From: Candidatus Eiseniibacteriota bacterium
Lineage (GTDB): Bacteria; Orphanbacterota; Orphanbacteria; Orphanbacterales; Orphanbacteraceae
Direction: 5' to 3'
Assembly: GCA_043809585.1 (NCBI GenBank)
Contig: JBDROZ010000003.1
Location: 1-64,000 of the forward strand
DNA length: 64,000 bases
The notes beneath the pieces were generated by a model. It searched no databases. It was not told the DNA's origin and worked only from the letters and a program-made list of their open reading frames with translations. The position numbers were made by a program, and so were the translations under genes. This document shows, piece after piece, positions 1,143 through 60,515 of the stretch. Position 1 is the first letter of the stretch. Every line of letters begins with the position of its first letter.

Positions 1143-1322
1143 GACCCGCGGATTCCGAGTGGTTTCGTCGCGAGGATTCGGAGCGCGAGGCGAGAGGCCG
1201 CTTCGGACGAGCCCGCTCCCGGAGGCATAGCCAGAGCTATGTCGAGGAAGCGGGCGAAGGAGAAGTGCCCTCGCAGTCCGCGATCCGGATCCGCAGCAGA
1301 AACCACGAGGAATTCGCGGGTC
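1143..1322 (+). repeat. GA-loop rod hairpin element, copy A
   Basis: Terminal arms gacccgcggattcc/ggaattcgcgggtc; internal loops gtcgcga/gcagca, ggcga/gcag, cggacga/gaaggag, cggag/cga. Confidence 0.85.
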
Positions 1323-1977
1323 ATTCCGGACAGTATTCCTGGTTCGATTCGACCTGGCCCTTGTAGAAACCCCACGTGTCGCGGCTCCCCTTCCGGAAAT
1401 CCTCCCACCGGTAGGCCGCGTACGTCCCGTCCCCCTCGTCCCGGATGAAGAGCTTCAGAGCCCCGTCGAAGGCGACCGAATCCAGCTCGGCACCGGCCAC
1501 GAGGAACACGTAGTAGATCCCCAGATGGTAATCGGTCTCGAACGTGGAGAACCCGGTCACCGACGAATCGGTGAGGACCTGCTCCCCCGTGTAGCTGAGC
1601 ACCATGGTCCCGGACTTCACCGTTCCGTCGTTGAAGCACGCCAAGATCCGGTTGAATACCAGTTCTTCGTCGTTCCGGTCCCACGGGTCGGCGAAGGGGA
1701 AGACCCCCGCGTCGGCGAGGTCCGTCGAATCGCTCCGGTCCGGCCGGTACACGTAGTCTTCCGAGAGGAGGGCGAGGAACTTCGTGTCGTTCCACGAGCC
1801 GAACGCCTCCACGAGTTTGGTCGTCACCTCCTCCGGCGTCTTCGCCGGCTCGTCCACGGGGGGGCCGATCTGATTCGGGTCCTCCGATTCCCGGGGCGAG
1901 AAGAAGCACCCGCCCGAGAGGAGGAACCACGCGGTGAGCGCCGTCCCGATCGTCCTCTTCCTCCATCGGCGGTTCAT
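1321..1977 (-). CDS. Lipoprotein of unknown function with TWGxxK motif near the C-terminus
   Basis: 218 aa; lipobox LSGGC; ...SRDTWGFYKGQ...; shares TTKL, DY/GY and PWD..EE segments with the 1..483 protein. Confidence 0.85.
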   Translation of the reverse strand: MNRRWRKRTIGTALTAWFLLSGGCFFSPRESEDPNQIGPPVDEPAKTPEEVTTKLVEAFGSWNDTKFLALLSEDYVYRPDRSDSTDLADAGVFPFADPWDRNDEELVFNRILACFNDGTVKSGTMVLSYTGEQVLTDSSVTGFSTFETDYHLGIYYVFLVAGAELDSVAFDGALKLFIRDEGDGTYAAYRWEDFRKGSRDTWGFYKGQVESNQEYCPE

Positions 1978-1987
1978 GGCGTCCTCC

Positions 1988-4066
1988 CTACAGTTTGATC
2001 GTGAGCGAGCCGGTCAGCTCCCAGTCGATCCGCCGCTCATCGCCCCGGAGCGATCCGCTCCGCTGGAAGATGGGAACCGTCGCGTCCTGGATCTGTTTCG
2101 CCTTCACGTTCAGCTGGGTCGAATCGGTGATCTTCCTCCGATACGAAAGCTGGTTGTAGATCTGGGACTTCGTCTTGTGGCCTTCCAGTTCCTTCCCCTC
2201 GGACAGGTCGTAGGACTTCTCCACCTGCACGAACTGCCCGGACTCCCAGGAGAAGTTCTTCATGATGCTGTAGCGAACGCGCAGGGCCAGCTTCTGGCTC
2301 GACCCTTCCCGTTCCTGGGCGAAGCGCCTCGTCGAGCCCTCCTTCCGGAAGTCGCCGCTCTCGTCCAACTTAAACCGGTATTCGAGGTCGAGCTTCGACC
2401 GCTTCGTCATGTCCCAGGCGACGGTCGAGCGGAGCTCCGAGACACGGGTCATGGTGTTCCGGTTCGAGTCGAACTTCTTGTAGATGTAGATCAGGGTCAT
2501 GGTGTAGGCGCTCTGGACCGAAAGACCGGACCGCGGCCGGTAGTCGACCGTCGGCGAGACGCGCCACGACTGCCGGGTTTCGTTGTTCGACGACCGGGCC
2601 TTGTCGATGTTCACCGTCGTGACCTCGTCCACCGACAGGAGCGCCGACCCTTGGATCTTCCCCGGCGGTTGGTAATCGAGGTTGAGCGAGAGGCGCCGGT
2701 CGAGGTTGTCCTTGTCCTGGGTCGAATCGGCGAAGAAGCGCCTCACCATGCCGACGCTTCCCGTGGTGCGGATCTTGGTGTACTTCCAGAAATCCCGGGA
2801 GACGTTGAGCAGGACCGACCCGCGCTGGGTCTTCACGCTGTTGTCGGGGAAGCCGGCGACGGGGAAACTCTTGTCCTCCGCCATCGACCGCTTCAGGGTC
2901 ACTCTGCTCTTGATATTCGACGGGAGGCGGTAGCCGAGGGAGACATCTCCCTGCAGGTCGACCCGGTCGCTCCCCTGCCATTGGTCGATCGCGTACCGGC
3001 GCTTGCCGAGGGAGTAGTCCAGTTTCGCGTCGTAGTCGAGGTTTCTCGAGAGGACCCCCATGGCGCCGACCCTGGCGTTCCGCCGCGAGTCGGTCGTCGT
3101 CTCGATCCCCCCCGCGGGCCGGACGAACTGCCGCTCCGACTCCTCCACCGAAAACTGGGCGTTCATCTTCGCGAAAGCGAAGTCCTCCCACCGGATCCGG
3201 ACGGTCCCCCTGTCGATGGCGTCCCGGTTGTCCTTGCTCTCCGCCGCCTGCTGGGCGCTCCCGCCGGTCTTCACGGCGAACCCGCTTCGGGTGGCGTCCC
3301 CCAAGAGTTCCACGTTCAGCGTCGCCCGGGGCGCGTACTTCAAGATCGTCGACCCGGAGATCGAGTTGCCCCGCTTTTCCTCCTGTTTGGTGATCGGGTC
3401 GGCACCGGACATGGACGATGATTCCTCGTCCTTGTCCCGTCTGTCCATGCCCCCTTCGACGTTGACGGTCAGCTGAAGCGCGTCCCCGATGTTCCGGAGG
3501 TAGACGCTCGACAGAGCGAGGCGATTGCGCACGATGTCGGTCGAACGGAGTTGCTCGCGCTCGGTGTTGGAGTCTCGGTTGTAGGTGAGCCCCACCTTGA
3601 GGCCCTTCCCCACGCGGTACTGGAGTTGGACCTGGGACTTTCGGACGTCCGTCTCCCGGCCCGCCCGGTCCGACTTGTTCTTGGTCCAAGTGTTCTGGGT
3701 TTTGGCGACCAGGTTGTCCCGGAGGAGGTAGTCGAGGTCCACGACCTGCTCGATGTTGGTGGTCTGCCGCATCCGGCTCGACCGGAACTGGTAGCTCGGA
3801 TGGAATCCTTTGGGAACGTCGTCGATGGTGACCGTCGGAATCTTGGAGAGAGAATCCTCGAGGACGACCGTTCGGATCGAATCGTAGCTGACCGAGTCGA
3901 CCCAGACCGAATCCCCCTTGAGATCACGCACCCAGAGCGAGTCGGTCCGAACGTCCTCGAGCTCATCGACCACGACCTGGGCGGCCGGCCGGCCGGCGCC
4001 GGAAAGGAGCGCGAGAAGCGCGGCGATCCCGACGAGCGTGCCCTTGACCCGCCTCCTCCGTCTCAT
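1988..4066 (-). CDS. Large putative outer-membrane beta-barrel protein
   Basis: Signal peptide MRRRRRVKGTLVGIAALLALLSGAGRPAA; alternating amphipathic strands throughout; C-terminal WELTGSLTIKL; ATGA overlap with the rsmA stop. Confidence 0.75.
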   Translation of the reverse strand: MRRRRRVKGTLVGIAALLALLSGAGRPAAQVVVDELEDVRTDSLWVRDLKGDSVWVDSVSYDSIRTVVLEDSLSKIPTVTIDDVPKGFHPSYQFRSSRMRQTTNIEQVVDLDYLLRDNLVAKTQNTWTKNKSDRAGRETDVRKSQVQLQYRVGKGLKVGLTYNRDSNTEREQLRSTDIVRNRLALSSVYLRNIGDALQLTVNVEGGMDRRDKDEESSSMSGADPITKQEEKRGNSISGSTILKYAPRATLNVELLGDATRSGFAVKTGGSAQQAAESKDNRDAIDRGTVRIRWEDFAFAKMNAQFSVEESERQFVRPAGGIETTTDSRRNARVGAMGVLSRNLDYDAKLDYSLGKRRYAIDQWQGSDRVDLQGDVSLGYRLPSNIKSRVTLKRSMAEDKSFPVAGFPDNSVKTQRGSVLLNVSRDFWKYTKIRTTGSVGMVRRFFADSTQDKDNLDRRLSLNLDYQPPGKIQGSALLSVDEVTTVNIDKARSSNNETRQSWRVSPTVDYRPRSGLSVQSAYTMTLIYIYKKFDSNRNTMTRVSELRSTVAWDMTKRSKLDLEYRFKLDESGDFRKEGSTRRFAQEREGSSQKLALRVRYSIMKNFSWESGQFVQVEKSYDLSEGKELEGHKTKSQIYNQLSYRRKITDSTQLNVKAKQIQDATVPIFQRSGSLRGDERRIDWELTGSLTIKL

Positions 4067-25370: not shown

Positions 25371-25551
25371 TAGCCCGTGGATTCCGAGAGGTTTCGTCAC
25401 GAGGGCTTGGATCGGGTGGCGAGAGACGGCACCGGACGAGCCGGCCCCGGAGGCGTAGCCTAAGCTACGGCGAGGAGGCCGGCGAAGGAGGAGCCGTTTC
25501 GCAGCCCCCGATCAGAGCCCGCAGCAGGAAACTCGAGGAATCCGCGGGCTA
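25371..25551 (+). repeat. GA-loop rod hairpin element, copy B
   Basis: Arms tagcccgtggattcc/ggaatccgcgggcta; loops gtcacga/gcagca, ggcga/gcag, cggacga/gaaggag, cggag/cga. Confidence 0.85.
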
Positions 25552-31379: not shown

Positions 31380-31489
31380 GGCGGTCTCCTCGTGACCCGT
31401 CCGGGGAGCAAGAACCCAACTCAAGATCGTTTGCCAAGTTATCAGTACGGTTGCGCTTCTGGCAACGGAAAAAGGAAGGAGCGCGGGCG

Positions 31490-31665
31490 GCCCACGGATG
31501 CCGAGTCGGTCCGTCACGAGGGACCGGATCCCGCGGCGAGAGGGGTTTCGGACGAGTCCCGGACCGGAGGCGGGGCTATGGCCCCGTCGAGGACCGGGAC
31601 GACGGAGAAAGCCCTCGCAGGCCGGGAGCCGGTTCCGCAGTAGGAGCGACGAGGAATCCGCGGGC
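31490..31665 (+). repeat. GA-loop rod hairpin element, copy C
   Basis: Arms gcccacggatgcc/ggaatccgcgggc; loops gtcacga/gcagta, ggcga/gcag, cggacga/gacggag, cggag/cga. Confidence 0.85.
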
Positions 31666-34600
31666 TAACGTAACCCGTACTTCTCGAGCTTCTTGTGGAG
31701 GCCCCAACGGGAGAGGCCTAGATCGCGGGCCGTCTTGGAGACGTTGTCCTGGTTCTTTTCGAGGTGGCGGCGGAGGAGCTCCCGCTCGTACCGTTCCATC
31801 TGGTCCCTGAGGGGGCCGGACGAGGCCGCCGCTCCGAGAGGCGCGGGCCCCCCCGAGGCCGACCCTCCCCGGATCGCGGGGGAAAGGCGGTCGGGGGTGA
31901 CCACGCCCGCCTCGTCGAGCACTACCACCCGGCGCATCTCGGAGCGGAGCTCCCGGACGTTGCCCTGCCAGGCGTGGCGGACCAGGGCCTGCGCCGCCTC
32001 CTCGTCGAGCCGGACCGGGTCCTTCCCCATCTCGGCGGAGAAGATCCGGAGAAAGTAGTTCGAGAGAAGAAGAATGTCTTCCACCCGCTCCCGGAGCGGA
32101 GGCAGGTTGATGTTGATCACGTTCAGCCGGTAGTAGAGGTCTTCCAGAAACCGGCCCTCGTCGACCTCTTTCTTCAGATCACGGTTCGTGGCGCAAATGA
32201 ACCGGACGTCCACGTCCTGGAACTGGTTCGCGCCGAGGGGGCGGATCCGCTTCTCCTCGAGCACGTGCAGGAGTTTCGACTGGACCTGGGGATTCATCTT
32301 GTCGATCTCGTCGAGGAAGACCGTCGATCCCGACGCCTCGACCAGAAGGCCCGTCTTGTCGGCGTGGGCGCCCGTGAAGGCCCCGTGCCGGTGTCCGAAG
32401 AGCTCGCTCTCCAGGAGTTGTTCCGGGAGTGTCGCGCAGTTGACGCTGTACATCGTTTTCGAGCCCCGGGGGCTCGACCCGTGCACGGCGTTCGCGATCA
32501 GCTGTTTGCCCGTCCCCGTCTCTCCCTGGATCAGGACGGTCACGTTCGTGCCCGCCACCTTCCGGACCAAGTCGAGGACATCGTACATGCGCTCGCTCTG
32601 GGTGACGATCTCGTCGAACCGCGAGGACCGGTTCACCTGGCGCCGGAGGCGGACGTTCTCTTCCTCCAGCTCCTTCTGTTTCGTCGAGAGGAGGGAGAGG
32701 ATGAAGCGCTGGGACCGGACGAGGCCGACCACCAGATCGAGCTCTCTCGAGCCGTACGGTGTCCGGTCCTGGGCCCGTTCGAGATAAATCGCCCCCGAGA
32801 TCTCCGTGTTCGTCTGGAACGGCACGAGCAGAAGGCTCTGCACCGTCCCCCCTTCGGAGAGGGCCGATCCCGGAATGCGCGGGTCCTTGGTCACCGCCGT
32901 GGAGAGGAACGGCCGCCCGCCCCGCCGGCACCGGTCGAACACCGGCAGCAGCAGGCGCACGACCTCCCGAGCCTGCTTCCGGTCGAGACCGTGCGCGGCC
33001 CGCTCCACCGGCCGGCCGTCGCCGTCGTCGAACACGACCAGGATCCCCCGGTCGCCGTTCGTGCGCTTCACCAGGTCCTCGAGGAGATGGGCCAGATCGA
33101 AATCGTCCGAAAGGGCGGGAAGAAGATCGTGAATGGCAAGATGATCGTTCCGCCCCGAAAGGGAGCGGTCGACGACGATCTCCTCGAGGGCGCGGCGGAG
33201 CCGGTCCACCTTGTCGAGGAGCGGCGCATCCGCCGCCTCCGTGAAGATCTGTTCCGCCTGGGCGAGGGCGTACTCCCATTTGTCCGAAATCCCCTCCCGG
33301 GCGAGGAGACGGGCCTCCTCGAGACGGGCCTTGCCGAGCCATATCGGGACGCCCGCTTCGCCGAAGATCTTGCGCGCCTCCGCGATCTCCAGTTGGAGAT
33401 CCGCGTCGTCTCCGAGGGAAGCGTCGATCGTGAACCGCACGTGCCGCACCAGGGCCTTGCCGAGTTCGACCTTCTCGTCCATTTCCCGAAGCCGGGAGAT
33501 GCCCTGGCGGAACATCCGCTCCCCTTCCTCCATCCGGCCCTCTTCGGCGGCGAGGGCCCCGAGGGCGCAGGCGAGAACGGCCTCCTCGAAGCGCTCGCCG
33601 ATCTTGCGGGCCGCGATCATGGCGCTCCGTAGATGAGAGCCGGCCCGGTCGAAGGCCCGGAGCTTCATTTCCGCCGCGCCGAGACGGCGCCCGATCTGCA
33701 CGGCGTGCTCCGAATCGGGACCGAGGGGCGCCGCCGCGACGAGGGCTTCCTCGTAGAGGCGGATCGCCTTCTCCGGGTCGCCCCCGTGACGCTCGATGTC
33801 TCCGAGGTCGCGCCGAATCAGCACCTCTTCCCGGAGGTATCCGTGCTCGACGCAATCGGTCAGGGTCGACTCCAAGTGGGACCGCGCTTCCTTGCGCTTC
33901 CCCCGGAGGATCTGAATCCGGGCCAAACCGATGCGGGAGAGGGCGACGCACTGCTGCTGGCCCGTCTGCAGGTAGATCCGGAGGGAGTCGCGGTACGCCT
34001 CCTCGGCGAGCTGCAGATTGCCTTTGTGGAAGTGGGTCACCGCCATGTTCAACAGAACGTGGCCCCGGTAGGAGTAGTCCCCGCTGACGTTCAGGATCTT
34101 CTTGGCATTCTCGAGCAGGTAGAGGGCACGATCGTTGTCGCTTCTCTCCTTGCAGACGAGGGCGAGGTTGATCGTCGCCTGCACCTGGCGCCGCGAATCG
34201 CCGGCCCGCCGGGCGCTCGCGAGGGCGTCCTCGTAATACTCCCGGGCCCGCTCGTAATCGCCGGTCCGGAAGTAAACGTGACCGAAACAGATGTGGAGCT
34301 TCGCAAGCGCGGCATCGTCCCCGCTTCGCTGCAGGATGCGGAAGGCCTCCTCACAGCGTTCCGCCGCCGGTTCGTACCGCCCCCGCTTGATCTCCAAGTA
34401 CCCACGGAGAATGCTCACTTCCGCCTCGAGGGGCTTCCGCTCCGGATCCGGGAGTTCGGCCGCTTCCCGGGCCGTGTCGTGGAGAGCGCGCTCCGTCGAG
34501 GCGAGATCACCCCGCTCGTAGAGGCACCACGCCTCCTTGACGCGCACCGCGACCGCGTCGGCGGGCGATAGAGAACCGCGGCTCACGCCGAGGGTTCGAA

Positions 34601-50402: not shown

Positions 50403-51071
50403 ATGAATCCGAACGGCCCATGCTTCCCCGGCCCCTCCGGACCGGCCTCCCTGGCCGGGGGCCTTCGCTGGCTCGGGCACTCCTCCTTCCGCGTCGACGG
50501 ATCGAAGACGGTCTACATCGATCCGTGGAATCTCGGTCCCGGCCCTCACCCCCCGGCGGACCTCGTTCTCGTCACCCATCCCCATTACGATCATTGTTCC
50601 CCCTCCGACCTCGCCCGGATCCCGGGGATCGAGAGCGCGGAGATCGTGACCGTGGCGGACGGGGCGAGGAAGATCGGCCGGCCCTGCCGGGTGATCGCGC
50701 CCGGCGGGAGAACGACGGCGAAAGGGGTGGACGTCACGGCCGTGGCGGCGTACAACAAGGAGCGGCCCCACCACCCCCGTCTGAACGGCTGGGTCGGGTT
50801 CCTGTTCCGGATGGACGGCCGGACGATCTACCATGCCGGCGACACGGACCGGATTCCGGAGATGGCGGAGATACGCTGCCAGATCGCCCTCCTCCCGGTG
50901 GGGGGCTCGTACACGATGAACGCCGAGGAGGCGGCCCTCGCCGCCGGCGACATGGAAGCGGAACTCGCGGTGCCCATGCACTACGGCGGCCCGGCGGGGA
51001 CGGAGGAGGACGGGCACCATTTCCTCCGGCTATCCCCCGTCCCGGTCGCCCTGCTCCCGGCACGGCGTTAG
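50403..51071 (+). CDS. MBL-fold metallo-hydrolase
   Basis: WLGHSSF, IDPW, THPHYDH, YHAGDT, PMHY. Confidence 0.9.
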
Positions 51072-51088
51072 CGGAGAGGAGAAGCCCC

Positions 51089-52171: not shown

Positions 52172-52203
52172 CCGGCCCTCGGGCTCTCGACGGTTCCTGC
52201 CTT

Positions 52204-52608
52204 TCAGAATTGTCTTTCGTAGCGCTTCCGGTCGAACTCTTCCTTCTCACGGTCGATCCAGTACGTCCCGGCTTCCGGATCGATCTTCCTGTCGAGGAGA
52301 TCCTTTCCGAGCAGGCGGAGGAGGAGACCGATCGGCGTGAAAAGAACATAGAAGATCACGATCAGGATCAGCCGCGTGTTGAACCAGCCGAGGGCGCGGG
52401 CGATCTTCGTCAGGACCCAGTGGACCGGACGGACCAAGGGCGGAAAGAGGAGCGCCGAGAGGAGCCCCCAGAGGGCAAAGAGATAGAACACGAAGGCCGT
52501 GGTCCGGTGGTCCCTCCAGAGCCAGACCGACCCGATCCCGCCCGCCACCACGATCAGGGCGATCGAGAACTTACGGAGCTCTTTGCGGTCCGGCGCGTTC
52601 GGCGTCAT
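52204..52608 (-). CDS. SxtJ-family membrane protein
   Basis: ELRKF, LGWFNTRLIL..IFY..FTPIGLL.RL.GKD.L, TYW, YERQF. Confidence 0.85.
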   Translation of the reverse strand: MTPNAPDRKELRKFSIALIVVAGGIGSVWLWRDHRTTAFVFYLFALWGLLSALLFPPLVRPVHWVLTKIARALGWFNTRLILIVIFYVLFTPIGLLLRLLGKDLLDRKIDPEAGTYWIDREKEEFDRKRYERQF

Positions 52609-52612
52609 GGCC

Positions 52613-54442
52613 TCAATCCAGTTCGAACTCGGACCGCCAGTCCGAGTCCCCGTCCAGCGGTTTCTGTTTCGTCTTGTCGAGGACGTAGTTCTCCATCACG
52701 AGGTAGTCCATCTCGGTCCGCATGAAGCAGAGATACGCGTCTTCCGGCGTGCAGACGATCGGCTCGCCCCGCACGTTGAAGGATGTGTTGATCACCACGG
52801 GGCAGCCCGTCTTCCCGCGGAAGGCGTCGATCAGCCGATGATAGCGGGGGTTCGTCTCCGCCGACACCGACTGGAGGCGCGCCGAGTAGTCGACGTGGGT
52901 GATCGCCGGCACCTCGGAGCGGGGCACGTTCAGCTTCGCGATGCCGAAGAGGCGCTGCTGCTCCTCGGTCATGGGGATCCGCTTCTCCTCTTTGACCCGG
53001 GCGACGAGAAGCATGTACGGGCTCTCCCGGTCGATCTCGAACCACTCGCTCGCCCGCTCGGCGAGGACCGTCGGCGCGAAGGGGCGGAACGACTCCCGGT
53101 ACTTGATTTTCAGGTTCATCACCGACTGCATCGTCCTCGACCTCGGGTCGCCGAGAATGGAACGGGAACCGAGGGCGCGGGGGCCGAACTCCATGCGCCC
53201 CTGGAACCAGCCGACCACCTTCTCGGCGGCGAGGAGTTCCGCCACGCGGTCGAAGAGGGCGTCGTCTTCGAGGCGCTCGAAGGCCGCCCCCTTCTTCTCC
53301 AGAAAGGCCCGGATCTTCTCGTCCTCGAACCGGGGGCCTAGGTATGATCCGCGCTGGGCGTCCCGGCCGGCGGGGGACGGACGGGGTTTTCCGAGATAGC
53401 GGTGCCAGCCGAAGAGGGCCGCGCCGAGGGCGCCCCCCGCGTCGCCCGCCGCCGGCTGGATCCAGATGTCGTCGAAGGGGCCTTCCCGGAGGATCTTGCC
53501 GTTGGCGACGCAGTTCAGCGCGACGCCGCCGGCGAGACAGAGGTTCTTCATCCCCGTCTCCCGGTGGACGGTCCGGGCCATCCGCATCATCACCATCTCC
53601 ACCACCTCCTGGACCGATCGGGCGAGATCCATCTCCCGGGGCGTGAGATCGCTCTCCGGCCTGCGGGGCGGCCCGCCGAAGAGATCGGCGAAGCGCCGGT
53701 TCGTCATGCTGAGGCCCGAAAGATAGTTGAAGTAGCGGAGGTCGAGACGGAAGGATCCGTCATCCTTGACGTCGATCAGATGTTCGAGAATCGCGTCCAC
53801 GTATTTCGGCTCGCCGTAGGGGGCGAGACCCATCACCTTGTACTCGCCCGAGTTTACCTTGAAGCCGGTGAAGTACGTGAACGCCGAATAGAGAAGGCCG
53901 AGGGAGTGGGGGAAATGGATCTCCTTCAGGATGCGCAAATCGTTCCCCCGCCCGACGCCGTAGCTCGTGGTCGTCCACTCGCCGACGCCGTCGATGGTGA
54001 GGAACGCCGCCTCGTCGAAGGGGGACGGGAAGAAGGCGGAGGCCGCGTGGGACTCGTGGTGCTCCGTGAAGAGGATCTTCCCTTCGTAGTCGAGCTCTTT
54101 CCGGATCAGGTCCTTCATGAACAGCTTCTGCTTCAGCCAGAGAGGGATCGCCTTGATCAGGGAACGGACGCCGAGGGGGGCGGTCACCAGGTAGGTTTCG
54201 AGGATACGCTCGAACTTCGTGAAAGGGCGATCGTAGAAGACGACGAAGTCGAGGTCTTTCGCGGTGATCCCCCCCTGCCGGAGACAAGACCCGACGGCCC
54301 GGTTCGGGAATCGGAAGTCGTGCTTCTTGCGGCTGAACCGTTCCTCCTGGGCGGCGGCGACGATGCGGCCGTCCCGGACGAGGGCGGCGGCGCTGTCGTG
54401 ATAGAACGCCGAAATCCCGAGGATGTTCACGGAAGCGGTCAT
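52613..54442 (-). CDS. O-carbamoyltransferase (NodU/CmcH family)
   Basis: ILGISAFYHDS, EERFSRKKH, HHESHAASAF, GEYKVMGLAPYG, EFGPRALG, NTSFNVRGEP. Confidence 0.93.
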   Translation of the reverse strand: MTASVNILGISAFYHDSAAALVRDGRIVAAAQEERFSRKKHDFRFPNRAVGSCLRQGGITAKDLDFVVFYDRPFTKFERILETYLVTAPLGVRSLIKAIPLWLKQKLFMKDLIRKELDYEGKILFTEHHESHAASAFFPSPFDEAAFLTIDGVGEWTTTSYGVGRGNDLRILKEIHFPHSLGLLYSAFTYFTGFKVNSGEYKVMGLAPYGEPKYVDAILEHLIDVKDDGSFRLDLRYFNYLSGLSMTNRRFADLFGGPPRRPESDLTPREMDLARSVQEVVEMVMMRMARTVHRETGMKNLCLAGGVALNCVANGKILREGPFDDIWIQPAAGDAGGALGAALFGWHRYLGKPRPSPAGRDAQRGSYLGPRFEDEKIRAFLEKKGAAFERLEDDALFDRVAELLAAEKVVGWFQGRMEFGPRALGSRSILGDPRSRTMQSVMNLKIKYRESFRPFAPTVLAERASEWFEIDRESPYMLLVARVKEEKRIPMTEEQQRLFGIAKLNVPRSEVPAITHVDYSARLQSVSAETNPRYHRLIDAFRGKTGCPVVINTSFNVRGEPIVCTPEDAYLCFMRTEMDYLVMENYVLDKTKQKPLDGDSDWRSEFELD

Positions 54443-54675
54443 GGACGATGCGCTCCTCCGGGGCGCGGCGCCCCCTTCTTCGGATCGGCAGGTGACGGGG
54501 GACCCCTGAGGGCCACCGGTCCCGGCCCGGCCGACGGGACTCATTGTAGCGCAAAGGGCAACGGCGGGGTAGCGGGGCGGGAACCCCGGCAGACTGGAGC
54601 GGGGAACGCCCGATCGAGTATGCTCCGTCCGAGACGAACCGGCTTCGCGTACTTCATGAAGGAGAACGAATCCCC

Positions 54676-55215
54676 ATGCTGAAGAGAGAGAACGCGGTCG
54701 TGGTGGTCGTGGACGTTCAGGACCGGCTGCTCCCCCATATCCGGAAGCACGAGGAAGTGACGGAGGCGGTGGCGAAGCTGATCCGCGGTTGCAGGGTGCT
54801 CGGTGTGCCCGTGGTGGTGACCGAGCAGTATCCCGAGGGACTCGGGCCCACGAACCGGCTCTTGAAGGAGGAGTTCGACCGGTGGGAGCCGATCGTGAAG
54901 TCGACCTTCTCCTGTTGCGGGGAGGGTTCCTTCGTGGAGGCGGTGGAGAAGACCGGGCGGAAGGAGGTCCTGCTCTGCGGCATCGAAGCCCACGTCTGCG
55001 TTTACCAGACGGCCCGGGACCTGCTCGAGAAGGGGTACCGGGTGCACCTCCTCGTGGACGGCGTCTCCTCCCGCCGCAAGATCGACCGGAAGACGGCGGT
55101 CGCCCGGATGGTGTCGATGGGCGCCATCCTCGCCACCGTCGAGATGGCCCTCTTCGAGATGCTGGAGGTGTCGGGCACGGAGGAGTTCAAGAAGATCAGC
55201 AAGATCGTGAAGTAG
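54676..55215 (+). CDS. Isochorismatase-family hydrolase
   Basis: VDVQDRL, TEQYPEGLG.T, K.TFSC, GIEAHVCVYQT. Confidence 0.92.
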   Translation: MLKRENAVVVVVDVQDRLLPHIRKHEEVTEAVAKLIRGCRVLGVPVVVTEQYPEGLGPTNRLLKEEFDRWEPIVKSTFSCCGEGSFVEAVEKTGRKEVLLCGIEAHVCVYQTARDLLEKGYRVHLLVDGVSSRRKIDRKTAVARMVSMGAILATVEMALFEMLEVSGTEEFKKISKIVK

Positions 55216-55217
55216 GC

Positions 55218-55386
55218 CGTGACCGGAAGCGATTTCTACTGCGGAAGCCGTCCCCGGGCTGCGAGGCCTCCTCTCCGTCGCCGCTTGCTCGAAGTAGCGA
55301 AGGCTACGCCTCCGCGAGCGGCTCGTCCGAGTCGGCCTCTCGCCGACGCGGCCGACTTCCTCGCTACGAAATCGCTTCCGGCCACG
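55218..55386 (-). repeat. GA-loop rod hairpin element, copy D
   Basis: Reverse complement arms cgtggccggaagcgatttc/gaaatcgcttccggtcacg; loops gtagcga/gcagta, ggcga/gcag, cggacga/gacggag, cggag/cga. Confidence 0.85.
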
Positions 55387-55408
55387 ACCTACAGGAAGAA
55401 TGAACAGA

Positions 55409-55471
55409 GGAAAGGAGGCCTCGCAGCCCGCGCTCGCGAACCGCAGCAGGAATCCCTCGGGCTCCGCGGGT
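55409..55471 (+). repeat. 3' half-copy of the GA-loop hairpin element
   Basis: ggaaaggaggcctc-gcag-cccgcgctcgcgaacc-gcagca-ggaatc...ccgcgggt, abutting the stop codon at 55472. Confidence 0.6.
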
Positions 55472-56110
55472 TCAGAGGCCGGCGATTCCGAAAAAGATCG
55501 ATCGGAAGATCGCGAGGAAGGGAGTGATGATCAACCAGAGGCCGCCTGTCACGAGAAGTCCGATGACGATGAACATGCCGTACGGTTCGAGGTCCCAGTA
55601 GACCTTCGCGACGCTCCGGGGCACGAAGGGGAGGATCACCCGCGAGCCGTCGAGGGGCGGGATCGGCATCAGATTGAAGAGGGCGAGAAGCACGTTGATC
55701 TCGATCGCGTACCTGAGCAAGTTCGAGGCGATGCTCCCGAACCCGCCCAGTCCGAGCCGGTAGAGGATCGCCGCGACGAAGGCCAGGATCAGGTTCGACG
55801 CGGGACCTGCCGCTCCGGTCTTCGCCATACCCACCATGGGGTCACGGAAATGGGTCGGGTTGATCGGCACCGGCTTCGCCCACCCGAACAGGAACCGGCT
55901 TCCGGTAGCGATGAGGGCGAGGGGGACGAGGACAGACCCGACGATGTCGACGTGGGCGAGGGGGTTCAGGGTAAGGCGCCCGGCCTTCTCCGCCGTCGGG
56001 TCTCCGAGACGGTTCGCCACGTAGCCGTGAGCGAACTCGTGGACCACGATGGAAAAGAAGAGCACGAAGAGAGGCGGCAGCGCTTCGACGACTCCAAAGC
56101 TCATGGGCAT
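55472..56110 (-). CDS. Site-2 protease (M50) family protein
   Basis: HEFAH, GDPT, FGWAKPVP, AAGPASN, FNLMPIPPLDG. Confidence 0.92.
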   Translation of the reverse strand: MPMSFGVVEALPPLFVLFFSIVVHEFAHGYVANRLGDPTAEKAGRLTLNPLAHVDIVGSVLVPLALIATGSRFLFGWAKPVPINPTHFRDPMVGMAKTGAAGPASNLILAFVAAILYRLGLGGFGSIASNLLRYAIEINVLLALFNLMPIPPLDGSRVILPFVPRSVAKVYWDLEPYGMFIVIGLLVTGGLWLIITPFLAIFRSIFFGIAGL

Positions 56111-56169
56111 GATTTCCTTTCGGTACTGGTAAAGTAGGGGCCCGCCGGGCAAAGCGCAAGGGATAAGGC

Positions 56170-56808
56170 ATGGGGAGGGATCCGGACATCTACCGCGCCG
56201 TCGACGCGGGCGGGACGGCGGAGACGAAGGTGAAGGGATCGAGGTTCCTCGGCCTCGCCTTCCCCGCCCCGACGGTCGAGGTCGCGGAGGAGATGATCGA
56301 AGCGCTCCGGAAGAAGCACTTCGACGCCACCCATGTCTGTTTCGCCTGGCGCGTGGGGCACGGACAAGAGGAGGCGCGGAGGATGGCGGATGCCGGGGAA
56401 CCTTCCGGGACGGCGGGGACGCCGATCATGCAGGTCCTGGAGCGCTCGGGAGTGTCGGACGGCGGGATCGCCGTGATCCGGTGGTTCGGCGGGGTCAAAC
56501 TCGGGACGGGGGGCCTCATCCGCGCCTACGGCGAGTGCGCCGGCCTCGCCCTCGAAGCCGCGACGATCGGAGAGCGCGTTCTCCGGAAGCCTCTCGAAGT
56601 GTCTTTCACCTACCCGCAGGCAAGCGCCGTCCTCCGCCTTGCCGAGAGGTACGGGGCCCTCGCCGACGAGTCCCACTACGGCGAAGAGGCCCGCATCCGC
56701 TTCGCCGTCCCCGCGAGCAAACTGCCGATCTTCCGGGACGCCCTCGTCGACGCCACCGCCGGCACCATTCGGTTCCTCTCCCAGCCGGGGTCAGACGCCG
56801 GTGTCTGA
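56170..56808 (+). CDS. yigZ: YigZ/IMPACT family protein
   Basis: KGSRF, ATHVCFA, DAGEPSGTAG.PI, RWFGGVKLGTGGL.RAY. Confidence 0.92.
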   Translation: MGRDPDIYRAVDAGGTAETKVKGSRFLGLAFPAPTVEVAEEMIEALRKKHFDATHVCFAWRVGHGQEEARRMADAGEPSGTAGTPIMQVLERSGVSDGGIAVIRWFGGVKLGTGGLIRAYGECAGLALEAATIGERVLRKPLEVSFTYPQASAVLRLAERYGALADESHYGEEARIRFAVPASKLPIFRDALVDATAGTIRFLSQPGSDAGV

Positions 56809-56951
56809 CCCTAACGAAATCCGCCACACAGGCTGAGGCCGGCGCGCTGCGGAATTCGCCGCTCCGCCCTAGCCCCCTGGCTCCCGGGCGATCCGTCCGC
56901 GGTCTCCTTCTCCTCTTGCGCTTTGCCGCCGCTCCCTATATTTTCCGGGGC

Positions 56952-57239
56952 ATGAGAGTCCTCCGCACCGCTCCGGGCCTGGCGCCTTTCCTCTTTCTCG
57001 TACTCCTGGTCGCGGCGGCGCCCCTGCCGGTTCCCCACGATCATGGCGTCGATGGCGCCGACCACGAGAGATGCCCGATCTGCCTCGCGGCCCATCGGGG
57101 GGGCGACGCGATTCTCACGGCCGGGGCGGTTGTTCCTTCCCCCCTTGTCTCCCGCCCCCTCGCGCCGGCGCCCCCCGCTCCGGCTCCCGTCCCCATCGAC
57201 GGTCCCCGTCTGGTGAACCGGGGTCCTCCCTCGCGCTGA
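56952..57239 (+). CDS. DUF2946-like leader peptide (signal-like segment, HDH/CxxC, Pro-rich, C-terminal RGPP)
   Basis: MRVLRTAPGLAPFLFLVLLVAAAPLPVPHDHGVDGADHERCPICLAAH...PAPPAPAPVP...NRGPPSR. Confidence 0.75.
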   Translation: MRVLRTAPGLAPFLFLVLLVAAAPLPVPHDHGVDGADHERCPICLAAHRGGDAILTAGAVVPSPLVSRPLAPAPPAPAPVPIDGPRLVNRGPPSR

Positions 57240-57316
57240 TCCGTTTCGACGATCGCCGTCCGCCCTTGGGAGGGGCGGTTCGTGAATGCGGATCTCGCAA
57301 CCGGGAGGAACGTTCC

Positions 57317-58456
57317 ATGGGCAAGACTATTCCGGCGGCAACGGCCGCCGTCATCATCCTTCTTCTCATAGGCTCGCCTCCGGCCGCCAGGGCGAGCGCC
57401 ACGGCGACAGGCGTTTCCCGCGACTTCAACCCCGCCGTCAGCGTCAACGCGCTCCTTCTCTATCGCTCGGGTCTCGGGGAGACGACGGTGGAGCCCGATT
57501 CCGGGTCCGAGGCGGGCCACGACCACGGGGCCGCCGGGGACGGCTTCGCCGTCCAGGAGACGGAGCTGCGGCTCACGTCGATCATCGACCCCTACGCGAA
57601 GGCGGATTTCGTCTTCGCCATGCACGGCACGGACGGCTTCGAGCTCGAGGAAGGGTTCGTCCGCCTGATCTCGCTCCCCCGGGGCCTCGGTCTCCGGGCG
57701 GGCAAAGCGTATTTCGAGTTCGGCAAGCACAACGCCTACCACACCCACCAGTTCCCCTTCGTGGAGCGTCCCTACGCCTGGGACGCCTTGCTCGGCGAAC
57801 ACGGCCTGAACGGCGCGGTGGTCGAGGCGAGCTGGCTGACGCCCCTCCCCTGGTACGCCGAAGTGATCGCCTACGGGTTCCCGTCCATCGAGACCGTCTA
57901 CGGCGACCACGAGATCCCGGAGAACGAGTGGGGAGGCGGGGCGCGAATCCGGCAGTTGTGGGAGGCGGGAGACCGGGCGACGGTCGATCTGGGAGTCTCC
58001 TATGCCGGCGGCGACGCACTGCGCGGCGGGCGCCGTCACTTCACCGGGGCCGATCTCACCTTCAAGTGGAGCGGAACCGGGAGAAACCCGAGGACCTTGG
58101 AGATTCAGAGCGAGTGGTTCCGCCGGATGGAGGACCTCGAGTCTTGGAACCCCCATCAGGACGGCTTCTACGCGCACGCCCTCGGCCGGGTCACCCGCCG
58201 GGTCGTGGCCGGCGCCCGGATCGACTTCCTCCGGTCCGACGAATTCACCGGATCGGAGGGGGGCGACGTCTTCTCGGAAACGAACCAGGAGAACCCCGAC
58301 GTCACGACCTTCACCGGGTCCCTCGCCTTCGTGCCGAGCGAGTTTCAGGCGATCCGGCTCGACGTGATTCACCGGGACTTCGGCGATAGCGACGAGCAGG
58401 CGGGCCGGCTCCAGTACAACTTCACCATCGGCAGCCACCCGGCGCACCGGTACTAG
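57317..58456 (+). CDS. Outer-membrane porin/receptor associated with metal uptake
   Basis: Signal peptide; FNPAVSV, HDHG, ETELRL..IDPY, FGKHNAYHTH, C-terminal IGSHPAHRY. Confidence 0.8.
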   Translation: MGKTIPAATAAVIILLLIGSPPAARASATATGVSRDFNPAVSVNALLLYRSGLGETTVEPDSGSEAGHDHGAAGDGFAVQETELRLTSIIDPYAKADFVFAMHGTDGFELEEGFVRLISLPRGLGLRAGKAYFEFGKHNAYHTHQFPFVERPYAWDALLGEHGLNGAVVEASWLTPLPWYAEVIAYGFPSIETVYGDHEIPENEWGGGARIRQLWEAGDRATVDLGVSYAGGDALRGGRRHFTGADLTFKWSGTGRNPRTLEIQSEWFRRMEDLESWNPHQDGFYAHALGRVTRRVVAGARIDFLRSDEFTGSEGGDVFSETNQENPDVTTFTGSLAFVPSEFQAIRLDVIHRDFGDSDEQAGRLQYNFTIGSHPAHRY

Positions 58457-58468
58457 GAGGGCGGACCC

Positions 58469-59386
58469 ATGAGAAGACATGTATTCGCCGCTTCCATCGC
58501 CGCGATTCTGGCGTTCGGCGTTTTCGCCCCCGCCTCGGCGAAGCTGAAGGTGGTGGCGACGCTCGCCGAGATCGGCGCCCTCGCGGAGGAGATCGGAGGG
58601 GAGCGGGTGGAGGTCGAAGTCCTCGCCAAGGGGAACGAGGACCCGCATGTCCTCCCCGCGAAGCCGAGCCACAGCCGCCGTCTCATGAAGGCGGACCTGC
58701 TCATCGCGAACGGGCTTCAGCTGGAGGTAGGATGGCTGCCGCTGCTCATCGAAGGAGCCCGGAACCCGCGCGTCCGCCCCGGATCGCCGGGGTATCTGGA
58801 GCTCGGCACGTTCATCGAACCCCTCGAAGTGCCGACGGGGGCGATCGACCGGAGCGGAGGGGACGTCCATCCCGAAGGGAACCCTCACTTCACCGTCGAC
58901 CCGGCTGTGTATCCGGCGCTGGGGGAAGCGGTGGCGGAGCGGCTCTCGACTCTCGATCCCGAGGGTGCGGCATACTACGAGGAGCGGCGGGAGCACTTTA
59001 CCGCCCATTGGATGGAGGCGCTCCGGGGTTGGAGAGGGCGGCTCGGCTTTCTCGAGGGCGAGGCGGTGGTGACCTTCCACCAGCAGTGGGAATACTTGGC
59101 GCGCACCTTCGGCCTCCGGATCCTCGGGAAGATCGAGGACCGGCCGGGCATCCCCCCCACGCCCCGGCATCTCGCCGATCTGGAAAGCACGATCGCGGCC
59201 GATGGGGTCCGATGGATCCTCTACTCCGACCTGACCTACCCGGATGTCCCCGAGAAGGTCGCCGCCCGCACCGGGTGTCGGGCGGTGCGGCTCCCCCAGT
59301 CGGTGGACAGCCGGGAGGGGACGAAGACCCTGACGGCCTGGTTCGATACACTCGTCGCCGCCTTCGATGCGGCGAAGGAGAATTGA
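58469..59386 (+). CDS. ZnuA/TroA-type metal ABC transporter substrate-binding protein
   Basis: KVVAT, DPH, NGLQLE.GW, DVHPEGNPH, TFH, IEDRPGIPPT. Confidence 0.9.
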   Translation: MRRHVFAASIAAILAFGVFAPASAKLKVVATLAEIGALAEEIGGERVEVEVLAKGNEDPHVLPAKPSHSRRLMKADLLIANGLQLEVGWLPLLIEGARNPRVRPGSPGYLELGTFIEPLEVPTGAIDRSGGDVHPEGNPHFTVDPAVYPALGEAVAERLSTLDPEGAAYYEERREHFTAHWMEALRGWRGRLGFLEGEAVVTFHQQWEYLARTFGLRILGKIEDRPGIPPTPRHLADLESTIAADGVRWILYSDLTYPDVPEKVAARTGCRAVRLPQSVDSREGTKTLTAWFDTLVAAFDAAKEN

Positions 59387-59387
59387 C

Positions 59388-60209
59388 ATGGAATTGGTGC
59401 GGCTCATGGCCGCCCCCTTCGCCGCGAGCGTGGTGCTCGTTCTGATCCACGCCTACCTCGGCGGGCACGTGCTCCGGCGGGGCGTCATCTTCGTCGACCT
59501 CGCCATGGCCCAATTTGCCGCCCTGGGCGCCGCCATCGGCCTGCTGGTCGGGGTCGATCACGACACGCCCCTCGGATACGGCCTCGGTCTCGTCTCCGCC
59601 TTCATCGCGGCGGCCCTCTTCTCCTGGTCGCGGCAGCGCATTCGGATCGTACCCCAGGAGGCGGTCATCGGGATCGCCTACGTGCTCGCGTCGAGCGCGG
59701 TGGTGGTGATCGCGGACCGGGTCCCCCACGGCGCGGAACACATCAAGCACGCATTGGTCGGGACCATCCTTTGGATCGGGTGGGGGGACGTGGCGAAAAC
59801 GGCGGTTCTCTACGGCGCCCTCGGGCTCCTCCTCGCCCTCACCCATTCCCGGCTCGAGATCGTCAGCCGGGATCCGGCGGAGGCGAGGCGGCGGGGGATG
59901 AACCTATTCGTCTGGGACTTCCTCTTTTACGGCGTCTTCGCTTTCGTCGTCACGAGTTCGGTGCAGATCGCCGGCGTTCTCCTCGTCTTCACGATCCTCA
60001 TCGTGCCGTCGGTCTTCACCGCCTTCGCGGGACTCACGGGCCGGCGGCGACTCCCCGGCGCCTGGATCTTCGGCGTCGCCATGAGCCTCGTCGGCATGAT
60101 CCTGTCCTTCTATCTCGATCTGCCGACGGGAGCCACGGTAGTGGTCGTCTTCGGCCTCGCCCTCTTCATCACCACCCTCCTCTTCTCCGGGGAGACACAC
60201 TTAGTGTAG
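59388..60209 (+). CDS. ZnuB-type metal ABC transporter permease
   Basis: YLGGHVLRRGVIFVDLA.AQ.AALG, EAVIG, GVLLVF..LIVP, DLPTGA. Confidence 0.9.
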   Translation: MELVRLMAAPFAASVVLVLIHAYLGGHVLRRGVIFVDLAMAQFAALGAAIGLLVGVDHDTPLGYGLGLVSAFIAAALFSWSRQRIRIVPQEAVIGIAYVLASSAVVVIADRVPHGAEHIKHALVGTILWIGWGDVAKTAVLYGALGLLLALTHSRLEIVSRDPAEARRRGMNLFVWDFLFYGVFAFVVTSSVQIAGVLLVFTILIVPSVFTAFAGLTGRRRLPGAWIFGVAMSLVGMILSFYLDLPTGATVVVVFGLALFITTLLFSGETHLV

Positions 60210-60213
60210 GTCC

Positions 60214-60515
60214 CTAGCCTGGATTATGCACAAACCTCCTACTGCGATCTCGGATCGCCGCCTGCGAAGCCTCCTTTCCATCGCCGCCTCCTCGACGGGG
60301 CCCGTGGCGCACTTTCATCTTCTCGCGACCGCTCGGAGCGAGAAGTGTTAGTGCGCCGGGGGAGCCCCCCCGGGCACTAGGGCTTATCGCTTCGATGGGC
60401 GCGATAAGCCCAACTGCCCGACGGGTCCTTGCCTCCGGTGGCGGCTCGTCCAAGTCAGCTTCTCGTCAGGCGATCCGAGCCCTCGTAACGGAGATTCATG
60501 CATAATCCAGGCTAG
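60214..60515 (-). repeat. GA-loop rod hairpin element, copy E, with a branched apical insertion and CTAG ends
   Basis: Perfect 17-bp arms ctagcctggattatgca/tgcataatccaggctag; reverse-complement loops gttacga/gcagta, gacga/gcag, tggacga/gatggaa, cggag/cga; two extra hairpins at the apex. Confidence 0.85.

Follow-up and report, generated by a model that had tools for sequence, protein, structure and literature searches.

Integron attC sites are read as folded single strands of which one strand is active, and they conserve their structure and a few unpaired bases, with the sequence of the stems being free. They are shorter and lie in cassette arrays beside the integrase gene, whereas the elements analysed here are dispersed singly at gene ends. 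IS200/IS605 derivatives (PATEs) and HUH single-strand transposons depend on single-stranded DNA and on strand-specific recognition of hairpins. Their left and right ends differ from each other and carry small subterminal hairpins, and they insert without duplication 3′ of a fixed tetra- or pentanucleotide; in contrast, the entire present element is one palindrome.

Bacterial MITEs are described as elements of less than 400 bp with inverted ends, many intergenic copies and no transposase gene, whose transcripts are predicted to form very stable long stem-loops, and nesting of pneumococcal repeats within one another has been reported (PMC3184786; PMC10969869). The present family resembles MITEs such as Correia/CREE of Neisseria, ERIC, Nezha and QMITE2 in being small, transposase-less and present in many intergenic copies with inverted ends, and modules are nested within some of its copies. 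Compared by description, it differs from MITEs in that its copies are only ~59% alike yet 92.5% paired through compensatory change, in that its loops are strand-specific and conserved in two phyla, and in that a parent IS with the same ends was not found. Also, its host is GC-rich, whereas MITEs are AT-rich according to a 2024 review; the main text of that review does not use the words "stop codon", "orientation" or "compensatory".

REPs are extragenic palindromes located mainly downstream of genes, which are vertically inherited with a single-copy Y1 transposase, form larger hairpins and persist as diverse populations (PMC3733652; PMC3116915). Like REPs and REPINs with their RAYT (TnpA-REP), the present family is accompanied by a RAYT-like gene. 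However, REPs comprise 20–40 bp with GTAG or CGTC tags, whereas the present element is a single 181-nt rod of seven helices. Next to the RAYT-like genes lie other, short REP families, and the TA-flanked ends of the element suggest a duplication. Such a duplication, of 2 bp at TA, is described for the IS630 family (PMC2170065), with CTAG named as preferred context in the title of a paper cited there. The CTAG on both flanks of young copies is in line with IS630/Tc1-mariner insertion, but the IS630-like copies in the present genome have ends unrelated to those of the element, the DDE_3 family was not found in three relatives carrying 30, 2 and 65 copies (G003, G005 and G007, respectively), and the sole comparison of a filled with an empty site has CC at the junction where TA is expected.

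Family size, fold and covariation

The preliminary description of the window (the whole stretch of 64,000 nt of DNA that was analysed) listed six pieces of a repeated hairpin, all of which were present at their positions, and proposed a repeated mobile family. This observation was confirmed, and the family is larger than was described, as the six pieces are members of a ~181-nt repeat family with ~170 copies and fragments in the 4.24-Mb genome. A whole-genome nhmmer search gave 192 matches, which were merged to 172 elements: 82 uninterrupted, 19 with nested modules or inner insertions, 43 partial at contig ends, and 28 partial inside contigs. The covariance model R1 yielded 109 matches among the 150 candidates scored. 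Copies are diverse, with a median pairwise identity of 59% and 60 clusters at 85% identity for 72 copies. In addition, there is a young burst subfamily, in which copies at least 90% identical to a single consensus reach ~55-fold coverage; these near-identical copies (~55) break the assembly, and 57 of the 246 contig ends fall within the family.

It had been assumed that simple sequence searches would largely miss the family. This did not hold, since an nhmmer profile of four copies already gave 171 matches, owing to the sequence conservation of the loops. Rfam 15 had no match, neither at the gathering threshold nor at E ≤ 10. As far as the searches went, the family is thus an undescribed, abundant, MITE-like mobile repeat, set apart from named MITEs by their descriptions. 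Lack of covariation, few genomic hits or a match to a described family had been named as grounds against the original proposal. The stems covary, genomic matches are far more than a few and no described MITE was matched as far as searches went; solely the MITE-like character of the family points in that direction.

The element is one long imperfect palindrome, and its purine-rich strand folds into a rod of seven helices. The helices are separated by conserved G/A-rich internal loops of the CGAG/CGNAG type, in which tandem G.A pairs can form. For copy 1 of the window, the predicted fold of the GA-rich strand has −118.0 kcal/mol (z −11.0) and that of the opposite strand −102.3 kcal/mol (z −7.6). 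An alignment of 44 diverse copies (A2; four from the window and 40 from other contigs) comprised 62 pairs, of which 58 were changed on both sides in a compensatory manner. In this alignment, 92.5% of the paired cells were paired compared to 67.2% after shuffling, with none of 500 shuffles reaching the observed value, and sliding the partners by 1–3 columns left 35–44%. The covariation score was 0.686 versus 0.206 (shuffled) and 0.09–0.15 (slid). The GA-rich loops align across copies between unlike stems, and loop columns are the most conserved ones (15 invariant and 43 nearly invariant), with sequences such as GGACGAG being 90–100% invariant.

The two strands are not equivalent. On the GA-rich strand of 60 representatives, 240 G-U-type cells were found versus 50 of the A-C type, with G-U exceeding A-C in 37 pairs and the reverse in seven, and 194 purine-purine mismatches versus ~52 pyrimidine ones. 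The GA-rich strand was the more stable fold in 60 of 60 copies. Selection on the structure of one strand and a preference of G-T wobbles for the GA-rich strand, both put forward in the preliminary description, are thereby borne out. Among rare variants of the young burst, G.T (13) and A.C (10) were nearly balanced, which points to a filter and not to mutation bias as the source of the strand asymmetry. Stem changes in the burst kept the pair in 18 of 44 cases versus 31.5% expected (p 0.19) and broke it in 26, and loops changed as fast as stems (0.41 versus 0.33 per position). This pattern fits neutral decay in place combined with selection at propagation.

Copies in the window and their position at gene ends

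Gene ends were taken from a crude custom gene caller, and the Pfam check covered only seven ORFs of the window. Copy 1 is a full copy at 1142..1323 with the GA-rich strand on the plus strand (R1 195 bits, span 1139-1325), and its last bases TCA (1321-1323) are the TGA stop of a minus-strand ORF (1321-1977). Copy 2, also full and on the plus strand (25371..25551; R1 170.4 bits, span 25368-25553), ends with CTA (25549-25551), the TAG stop of a minus-strand gene (25549-26169) with a Pfam LpoB domain at residues 49-195 of 206. The same applies to the full plus-strand copy 3 (31488..31667; R1 144 bits, span 31485-31669), of which CTA at 31665-31667 is the TAG stop of a minus-strand sigma-54 activator gene (31665-34766), whose Pfam domain order closes with HTH_8 (residues 990-1030 of 1033).

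Copy 4 is full and has the GA-rich strand on the minus strand (55212..55392; R1 164.6 bits, span 55210-55395). The 3′ end of this strand overlaps the TAG stop (55213-55215) of a plus-strand isochorismatase gene (54676-55215; Pfam). The half copy at 55408..55474 (plus strand) is a remnant of the 3′ arm, detected by nhmmer with 24.1 bits (55408-55453; model positions 99-144), and its terminal TCA (55472-55474) is the TGA stop of a minus-strand M50-peptidase-like gene (55472-56152; Pfam). At the matching place, the relative G004 carries a full element (L068:2112-2301; R1 125.5 bits). Copy 5 (60215..60514, minus strand) was found by nhmmer on both arms (51.7 and 53.3 bits) and belongs to the young burst subfamily, with ends TAGCCTGGATTATGCA... 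and CTAG on each flank. Its terminal repeats are 300 bp apart, and a ~120-nt branched module replaces the apical stem, which explains the weak partial R1 matches (19.7 and 10.7 bits); for the entire copy, folding predicts a rod whose tip is branched (−191.4 kcal/mol, z −12.1). The 3′ end of its GA strand lies 5 nt past the TAG stop (60207-60209) of an ABC-3 permease gene (59388-60209; Pfam).

This position at gene ends and the orientation bias hold for the family. In 39 diverged copies, only the 3′ end of the GA strand abuts a gene stop; in one only the 5′ end does, in one both ends do, and in 18 neither does (binomial p 7e-11 for 39 versus 1). The adjoining gene is on the opposite strand, so that the structured strand is antisense to it, which adds a fact to the antisense idea of the preliminary description. 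For the young burst, the same classes contain 4, 4, 1 and 4 copies, which differs from the diverged copies (Fisher p 0.0017). Two copies are located 1–2 nt from the 3′ ends of tRNA genes and are oriented as at protein genes. Among old copies with a 3′-side neighbour, the 3′ side is directed towards the gene end in 54 of 58. With respect to replication skew, the GA strand coincides with the G-poor strand for 40 of the 58 old copies, whereas insertion into the lagging-strand template, as for HUH transposons, would give the opposite. At the loci of relatives, the 3′ side points to the gene end in 14 of 19 elements, in eight of them exactly.

Mobility and distribution

Mobility is evident from an orthologous site that is filled in G004 and empty in G007 and G008, with a junction ambiguous by 2 nt, and from the near-identical burst. 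Within genus g5, copies from different species are 85–97% alike. Young copies have the ends TAG...CTA (13/13) and are flanked on both sides by CTAG (12/13). With 873 sites in the genome versus 13,177 expected, this tetranucleotide is 15-fold under-represented; 275 of these sites overlap a stop codon.

The family is present in six of the ten genomes of its small phylum, and a second small phylum (~42% GC) harbours relatives in low copy number. A larger element with the same ends was not detected: the terminal-repeat pairs were 164–334 bp apart, except for one pair at 28 bp and another at 1,204 bp, the latter of which was taken for two separate elements. A mobilising enzyme was not found. For each of DDE_3, DDE_Tnp_1, rve and RVT_1, there were at least two genomes with the element but without the family, and G003, with 30 copies, lacked all of these families.

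Propagation, orientation and alternative readings

Tentatively, we favour a selfish element that needs its folded purine-rich strand to spread and whose sense orientation is removed by selection. A long-resident family of small, non-autonomous, MITE-like elements of ~181 nt in a small bacterial phylum would insert at TA, for the most part in the rare CTAG, with the G...C ends rebuilding TAG. Insertion into a stop codon would therefore leave the protein unchanged, and copies would accumulate exactly at gene ends. Propagation would occur only if the purine-rich strand, as ssDNA or RNA, folds into a form read by a putative mobilising protein; such a filter would keep the stems paired and the loops constant while stem sequences drift. 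Copies whose purine-rich strand has the same sense as the transcript of the upstream gene would be lost over time, possibly due to the more stable fold of this strand and its many GGAG/GAGG motifs, and thus old copies would be nearly all antisense. Against this reading, a TA duplication, as suggested by the ends, points to a cut-and-paste DDE enzyme, and such enzymes are not known to require a folded single strand. Also, few full-length decayed copies were seen, and the orientation bias could come from function instead of a purge.

Such a function is the core of a second, rather unlikely reading, in which the element, placed exactly where protein and tRNA genes end and in one orientation, has been co-opted by the host and acts via the purine-rich antisense strand. 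As RNA, an antisense or convergent transcript would fold into the rod just before the polymerase enters the gene, and the rod would stop, pause or mark the transcript or bind a protein; alternatively, the purine-rich strand would act as folded DNA. In favour of this, among the 40 diverged copies abutting a gene stop with one end only, 39 have the structured strand antisense, as do the two copies at tRNA genes, the bias tracks the neighbouring gene more closely than the replication skew, and the loops are conserved across phyla of 66% and 42% GC. In two orthologous pairs of G004 and G007, all ten changed base pairs stay standard (two by double change, eight by a wobble on the GA strand). Next to one tRNA gene, three species share an occupied site, although its 5′ flank is not alignable; between G004 and G008, 17 pairs of this copy are changed on both sides and still paired. 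Retained pairing in orthologous copies hints at constraint in place and therefore at a host-level function. The tRNA-adjacent copies are also mosaic, G007 combining the outer stem of G008 with the interior of G004, which could result from conversion between copies. On the other hand, no promoter was found within the element or at a constant distance from it, with 0 promoter-like sites in a scan of 25000-32000, the 5′ flanks show no relationship from locus to locus, and the hairpin lacks a U-tract in both directions. Old copies show no enrichment of convergent neighbours (17 of 58), most sites are not common to different genera, with the LpoB locus being empty in G003, G004 and G005, and new mutations of young copies show no purifying selection. 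Furthermore, some copies of the second phylum are sense-oriented between tandem genes, and the presence of CsrA and L7Ae families does not track the element.

It is improbable that the element acts in mRNA 3′-UTRs as the pyrimidine-rich strand, either as a stabilising stop-codon hairpin or by C-rich, G-poor Rho-loading loops. The asymmetry would then be selection for G-poor loops and a weaker mRNA stem, unrelated to pairing of the other strand. The pyrimidine-rich strand is the one expected from transcription of the upstream gene, G-U changes of the GA strand are G-to-A and U-to-C changes on the mRNA, lowering G and raising C, and a role as RNA elements has been proposed for REP hairpins located downstream of genes (PMC3733652). 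However, G-U is expected in an RNA selected for pairing, and the pyrimidine-rich strand has 50 wobbles versus 240 C.A. The near-invariant loops argue for specific recognition and not for composition, a U-tract is missing, and some copies lie beyond intrinsic-terminator-like T-tracts (ends TTG...CAAAAAG), where transcription from the upstream gene would seldom reach them. Moreover, Rho loads poorly onto a 90-bp hairpin.

We consider it just as doubtful that a RAYT-like Y1 (HUH) transposase moves the element as a REPIN-like folded single strand, although HUH enzymes read one-strand hairpins. Homologues of the Y1 protein G000:C51:15378-16034 were found in all six element-bearing genomes of the phylum and in none of the four others, as well as in the three element-bearing genomes of the second phylum, and Y1 was the only one of five transposase/RT families tested that occurred in all six. 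In genus g5, the REP belonging to the RAYT itself (GTAGCCTGGCACC) has TAGCCTGG in common with the end of the element. However, each RAYT-like gene has a short REP family of its own at its flanks (GGGGACACAATACC in the present genome, with 105 matches genome-wide, and GTAACCAGATACC in G003) and not the ~181-nt element. Of the 19 Y1 loci searched, 17 had no R1 element within ~1.5 kb; the other two had one full copy at a distance of 1.2 kb and one weak match of 27.8 bits. The co-occurrence may be a single shared gain, as related genomes are not independent, and G041 has the Y1 protein and no R1 match. A 2-nt duplication would not be expected for HUH transposition.

Least credible and already disfavoured is that no selection on structure acts and that the arms stay complementary by self-templated quasi-palindrome correction or conversion between copies, with the loops beyond reach: template switching in quasi-palindromes is known and the tRNA-site mosaic shows exchange between copies, but correction would erase the asymmetric loops, which are the most conserved part, the asymmetry of 240 versus 50 is unexplained when new mutations are symmetric, and young copies gain pair-breaking changes that stay uncorrected.

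Fold, size and distribution of the family

All six hairpin pieces listed in the preliminary description were present in the window, namely copies 1 to 4 (1142-1323 +, 25371-25551 +, 31488-31667 + and 55212-55392 -), a half copy (55408-55474 +) and copy 5 (60215-60514 -), and the conserved GA-rich blocks reported between unlike stems were borne out on alignment of the six pieces. Copies 1-4 scored 144-195 bits in a window scan with R1, a covariance model of the element based on an alignment (A2) of 44 diverse copies, i.e. the four window copies and 40 others. Copy 5 was matched by nhmmer in both arms and missed as a whole by R1, because a branched module of ~120 nt replaces its apex; for the complete copy, the predicted fold is a rod that branches at its tip (-191.4 kcal/mol). 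Outside the six pieces, no further family members were detected in the window by nhmmer and R1. Metagenome contigs covering window positions 44001-64000 (four DNA runs from two studies) contained other family members joined across the apical module of copy 5, and no empty copy-5 site was seen in the same four runs.

RNAalifold predicted 62 base pairs in seven helices for A2. The stems do covary as proposed, with changes on both sides in 58 of the 62 pairs and a covariation score of 0.686 compared to 0.206 after shuffling and 0.09-0.15 with slid partners. Of all stem cells, 92.5% were paired. This share was 67.2% in shuffled alignments, none of the 500 shuffles being as high as the actual alignment, and 35-44% when partners were slid. 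The most conserved columns were the unpaired blocks, with 15 invariant and 43 nearly invariant positions. For copy 1, the fold of the GA-rich strand reached -118.0 kcal/mol (z -11.0) compared to -102.3 kcal/mol for the opposite strand, and in 60 of 60 copies the GA strand formed the more stable fold (means -117.8 vs. -104.6 kcal/mol). When read on the GA strand, 60 representatives contained 240 G-U-type versus 50 A-C-type cells as well as 194 purine-purine mismatches, far more than pyrimidine ones. In the young burst, the near-identical subfamily, rare variants were symmetric (13 G.T vs. 10 A.C); therefore, the strand asymmetry reflects a filter and not a mutation bias. The purine-rich strand of the element is under structural selection. 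By eye, a K-turn reading of the loops was dropped, since no G.A pairs follow the 3-nt bulge. As to known RNA families, the window had 0 matches in Rfam 15 at gathering thresholds, and the six copies had only chance-level matches at E ≤ 10 (plant miRNA, skipping-rope and CRISPR repeat).

The family extends far beyond the window. In the whole genome (G000; 4.24 Mb, 66% GC, 123 contigs), R1 gave 109 hits among 150 candidates scored. A four-copy nhmmer profile gave 171 hits and, after one iteration, 192, which merged into 172 elements. Among these, 82 were uninterrupted, 19 contained inner insertions, 43 were truncated by a contig end and 28 were fragments inside contigs. Contig ends lay inside the family in 57 of 246 cases, so that assemblies are broken by it. 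The basic form has 181 nt, and forms with nested modules have 247-334 nt. Median pairwise identity among 72 full copies with flanks was 59% (60 clusters at 85%), and pieces at least 90% identical to the consensus of the young subfamily covered it ~55-fold. Close or tandem pairs were seen at C22:11465-14045 and at C84:50503-50861, the latter consisting of two full copies with ~12 nt overlap and an identical inner half.

Among the 10 species genomes of the GTDB phylum, the element was detected by R1 in six and not in the other four. Besides the 109 hits in G000, there were 30 in G003, 33 in G004, 2 in G005, 65 in G007 and 49 in G008. Three of six genomes of a second phylum (~42% GC) contained 5, 5-6 and 1 copies with TA-flanked ends, the same apical and loop motifs and AT-rich stems; the loops are retained in both phyla, from 66% down to 42% GC. 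No element was found in ~35 genomes outside both phyla, roughly one per family. A pattern search of 185,579 species genomes gave, among 80 loci listed, at least one locus confirmed by R1 (L114, in a MAG labelled Gemmatimonadetes bacterium) and one marginal R1 match of 27.7 bits, the rest being chance matches in GC-rich genomes. With the same pattern, R1 confirmed none of 65 loci in viral contigs.

Position and orientation at gene ends

A codon-usage caller of our own predicted 3,176 genes in G000; in 7 of 10 window ORFs, Pfam domains occurred in the order expected. According to these calls, none of the copies is located within a gene. In 63 of 70 copies with a neighbor on that side, the 3′ end of the GA strand faced the end of a gene on the opposite strand, and this orientation rule holds in all six window pieces. 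Abutment to a stop codon was defined as a distance of -12 to +5 nt. Of 59 diverged copies, 39 abutted a stop codon solely by the 3′ end and 1 solely by the 5′ end; another copy did so by both ends, and the other 18 by neither (p 7e-11). Among 13 young copies, the respective numbers were 4, 4, 1 and 4 (Fisher p 0.0017). This change from 4 vs. 4 to 39 vs. 1 amounts to a natural experiment in which insertion is neutral as to orientation and survival is not: old copies survive almost only antisense to the abutting gene. Two elements are located 1-2 nt from the 3′ end of a tRNA gene in the same orientation (tRNA-Gly, G000:C13:67429-67503; tRNA-Gln, G000:C23:80050-80122); therefore, the rule is tied to transcription units and not to translation. 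GC skew tracks the orientation less closely than the neighboring gene does, with the GA strand on the G-poor strand in 40 and on the G-rich strand in 18 of 58 copies. At loci of related genomes, the rule holds in 14 of 19 elements, exactly in 8; in the low-GC phylum, copies are few and orientations mixed.

The best reading, which we hold tentatively, is that of a selfish element whose spread depends on its folding and which is purged where it lies in sense orientation. Selection at the stage of propagation is favored by the stem and loop changes of the young burst, by element sites that mostly differ from genus to genus, and by the 28 internal fragments. Stem changes in the young burst kept a pair in 18 of 44 cases (31.5% expected, p 0.19), and the loop change rate was as high as that of the stems. 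Such a purge would make the cost of a purine-rich hairpin in the sense strand of a gene directly testable.

The main rival, a device on the antisense strand retained by the host, appears rather improbable to us. The rods would then be strand-specific boundary devices and not mere parasites, a doubtful proposition at present. Folded RNA or DNA of the purine strand would lie precisely at the 3′ border of protein and tRNA genes, where a candidate protein could read the tandem G.A loops, and thereby the gene might be guarded against antisense transcription or its end marked. If true, two candidate phyla would share a new kind of gene-end insulator that a mobile element had seeded. Constraint in place is favored by two orthologous pairs of G004 and G007, in which all 10 changed pairs are still standard, and by a tRNA-adjacent site occupied in three species of the genus g5 (G004 L227, G007 L052, G008 L061) with 5-17 double changes. 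This trio is a mosaic, as the G007 copy has its outer stem in common with G008 and its interior in common with G004; therefore, copies exchange parts, which points to conversion between copies.

The elements lack the mark of an intrinsic terminator (hairpin plus U-tract), a T-run that directly follows the stem on the transcribed strand. In the flanks of 72 copies, neither T nor A runs were found beside the ends, except in a subgroup with TTG...CAA ends (C17, C26, C50, C111, C20, C53) followed by AAAAAG and a GC-rich hairpin, to which the run belongs. Copies of this subgroup are not located at a stop codon, lying just past the apparent intrinsic-terminator T-tract of the upstream gene. A promoter/terminator scan of window region 25000-32000 gave nothing at the elements; six terminator-like sites were predicted there, none of them at copy 2 or copy 3. 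Gene-end and terminator annotation in such uncultured lineages would both be confused by the family.

Ends, target sites and movement

Both ends of the element (TAGCC...GGCTA) are joined by an outer helix of 23 pairs (92.8% paired). Young copies read CTAG-CCTGG...CCAGG-CTAG and older ones TAGCCCGCGG...CCGCGGGCTA with variants. Both ends carry TA in each of the 13 young copies, the same TA being part of the palindrome, and the 5′ TA is often decayed where a 3′ CTA, TCA or TTA persists as stop codon of the gene. CTAG is ~15-fold rarer than expected in G000 (873 sites outside the family vs. 13,177), and a stop codon is overlapped by 275 of these 873. Were TA duplicated on insertion, the G...C ends of an element entering TAA or TAG would yield TAG; such ends would let the element occupy stop codons with proteins unchanged. 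One young copy lies between two convergent genes, each of which ends in TAG at one end of the copy. TAG accounts for 1,254 of 3,142 predicted stop codons in G000, a high share for a genome with 66% GC.

Between species of g5, copies are 85-97% alike. At the sole filled/empty site, G004 has the element and both G007 and G008 lack it; the borders of the site carry a 2-nt CC ambiguity and no TA, and the empty target lacks TAG. There was no usable synteny at locus L226, and at L228 and L229 the corresponding places showed contig breaks or no R1 match. Small modules are nested within the 5′ arm and at the apex of the rods (window 60296-60431, inside copy 5; C100, C104, C121, C40 and others in G000). 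In the 5′ arm, a module of ~90 nt follows GACTT. The apical modules have 60-130 nt and palindromes of their own, and in two places they are interrupted again at an internal CTAG.

Known element classes and candidate partner proteins

The family is real, abundant, undescribed and MITE-like. It resembles bacterial MITEs in that the element is small, lacks a transposase gene, has terminal inverted repeats and combines many copies with recent movement (172 elements or fragments, ~55 of them nearly identical; the filled/empty site of G004 vs. G007 and G008); it differs in that no parent insertion sequence with its ends was found. Bacterial MITEs and REPs are as a rule characterized by their sequence, the hairpins being regarded as a by-product of the inverted repeats. 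Here, in contrast, the fold persists and not the sequence (59% identity, 92.5% pairing), and the signal is strand-specific. The family may stand with attC sites and REPINs as a rare case of mobile DNA that is recognized in folded, single-stranded form. Integron attC sites occur in cassette arrays beside an integrase gene and have R and L core boxes, whereas the element is dispersed in single copies across the 123 contigs. Elements of the IS200/IS605 type have unlike ends, cause no duplication and insert into the lagging-strand template, 3′ of a short target that is fixed. The ends of our element form one palindrome, and its structured strand coincides with the G-rich strand in no more than 18 of 58 copies. 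REPs are short tagged palindromes of 20-40 bp, occurring singly or as inverted doublets, whereas the element is a single 181-nt rod of seven helices and its end lacks a constant GTAG tag.

The preliminary description had suggested a search for a transposase bounded by the same ends, and none was present among the terminal-repeat pairs of G000. A bigger element sharing the ends was not found either, as 130 end matches paired only at 164-334 bp with two exceptions, a 28-bp pair and a 1,204-bp pairing read as two separate elements. No parent IS with these ends was found in the assembly, which is 97% complete, so that an unassembled IS may remain; the small contigs of G000 carried ordinary genes. 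As movers, DDE_3 and DDE_Tnp_1 were rejected because both are missing from the element-bearing genomes G003, G005 and G007, and rve because it is missing from G003 and below threshold in G007. As partners, RVT_1 (missing from G003, G007 and G008), CsrA (missing from all three g5 genomes) and L7Ae-like proteins, whose distribution in the 10 phylum genomes does not track the element, were also discarded.

A RAYT-like Y1 (HUH) transposase is encoded by 6 of 6 element-bearing genomes of the phylum and by 0 of 4 that lack the element, a likeness to REP/REPIN systems that may go back to one shared event. RAYT genes are flanked by the repeats they move, whereas the element is not beside Y1 genes: R1 found no adjoining element near those of G000 and none within ~1.5 kb at 17 of 19 Y1 loci of relatives. 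Instead, the flanks of each RAYT-like gene carry a separate short REP family, differing among relatives, and a physical link between RAYT and element was rejected for this reason. In G000, the Y1 (PF01797) gene (219 aa; G000:C51:15378-16034, - strand) is flanked by the 14-nt repeat GGGGACACAATACC, which has 105 genome-wide hits at ≤1 mismatch in direct and inverted clusters with 27-28 nt spacing. The Y1 gene and the short REPs are a separate REP/RAYT system. IS630-like elements with DDE_3 (G000:C38:~430-1500 and C122:1-1300) have TA-flanked inverted ends of ~27 bp, unrelated to those of the hairpin family, and a run of eight A's between their two ORFs suggests programmed frameshifting.
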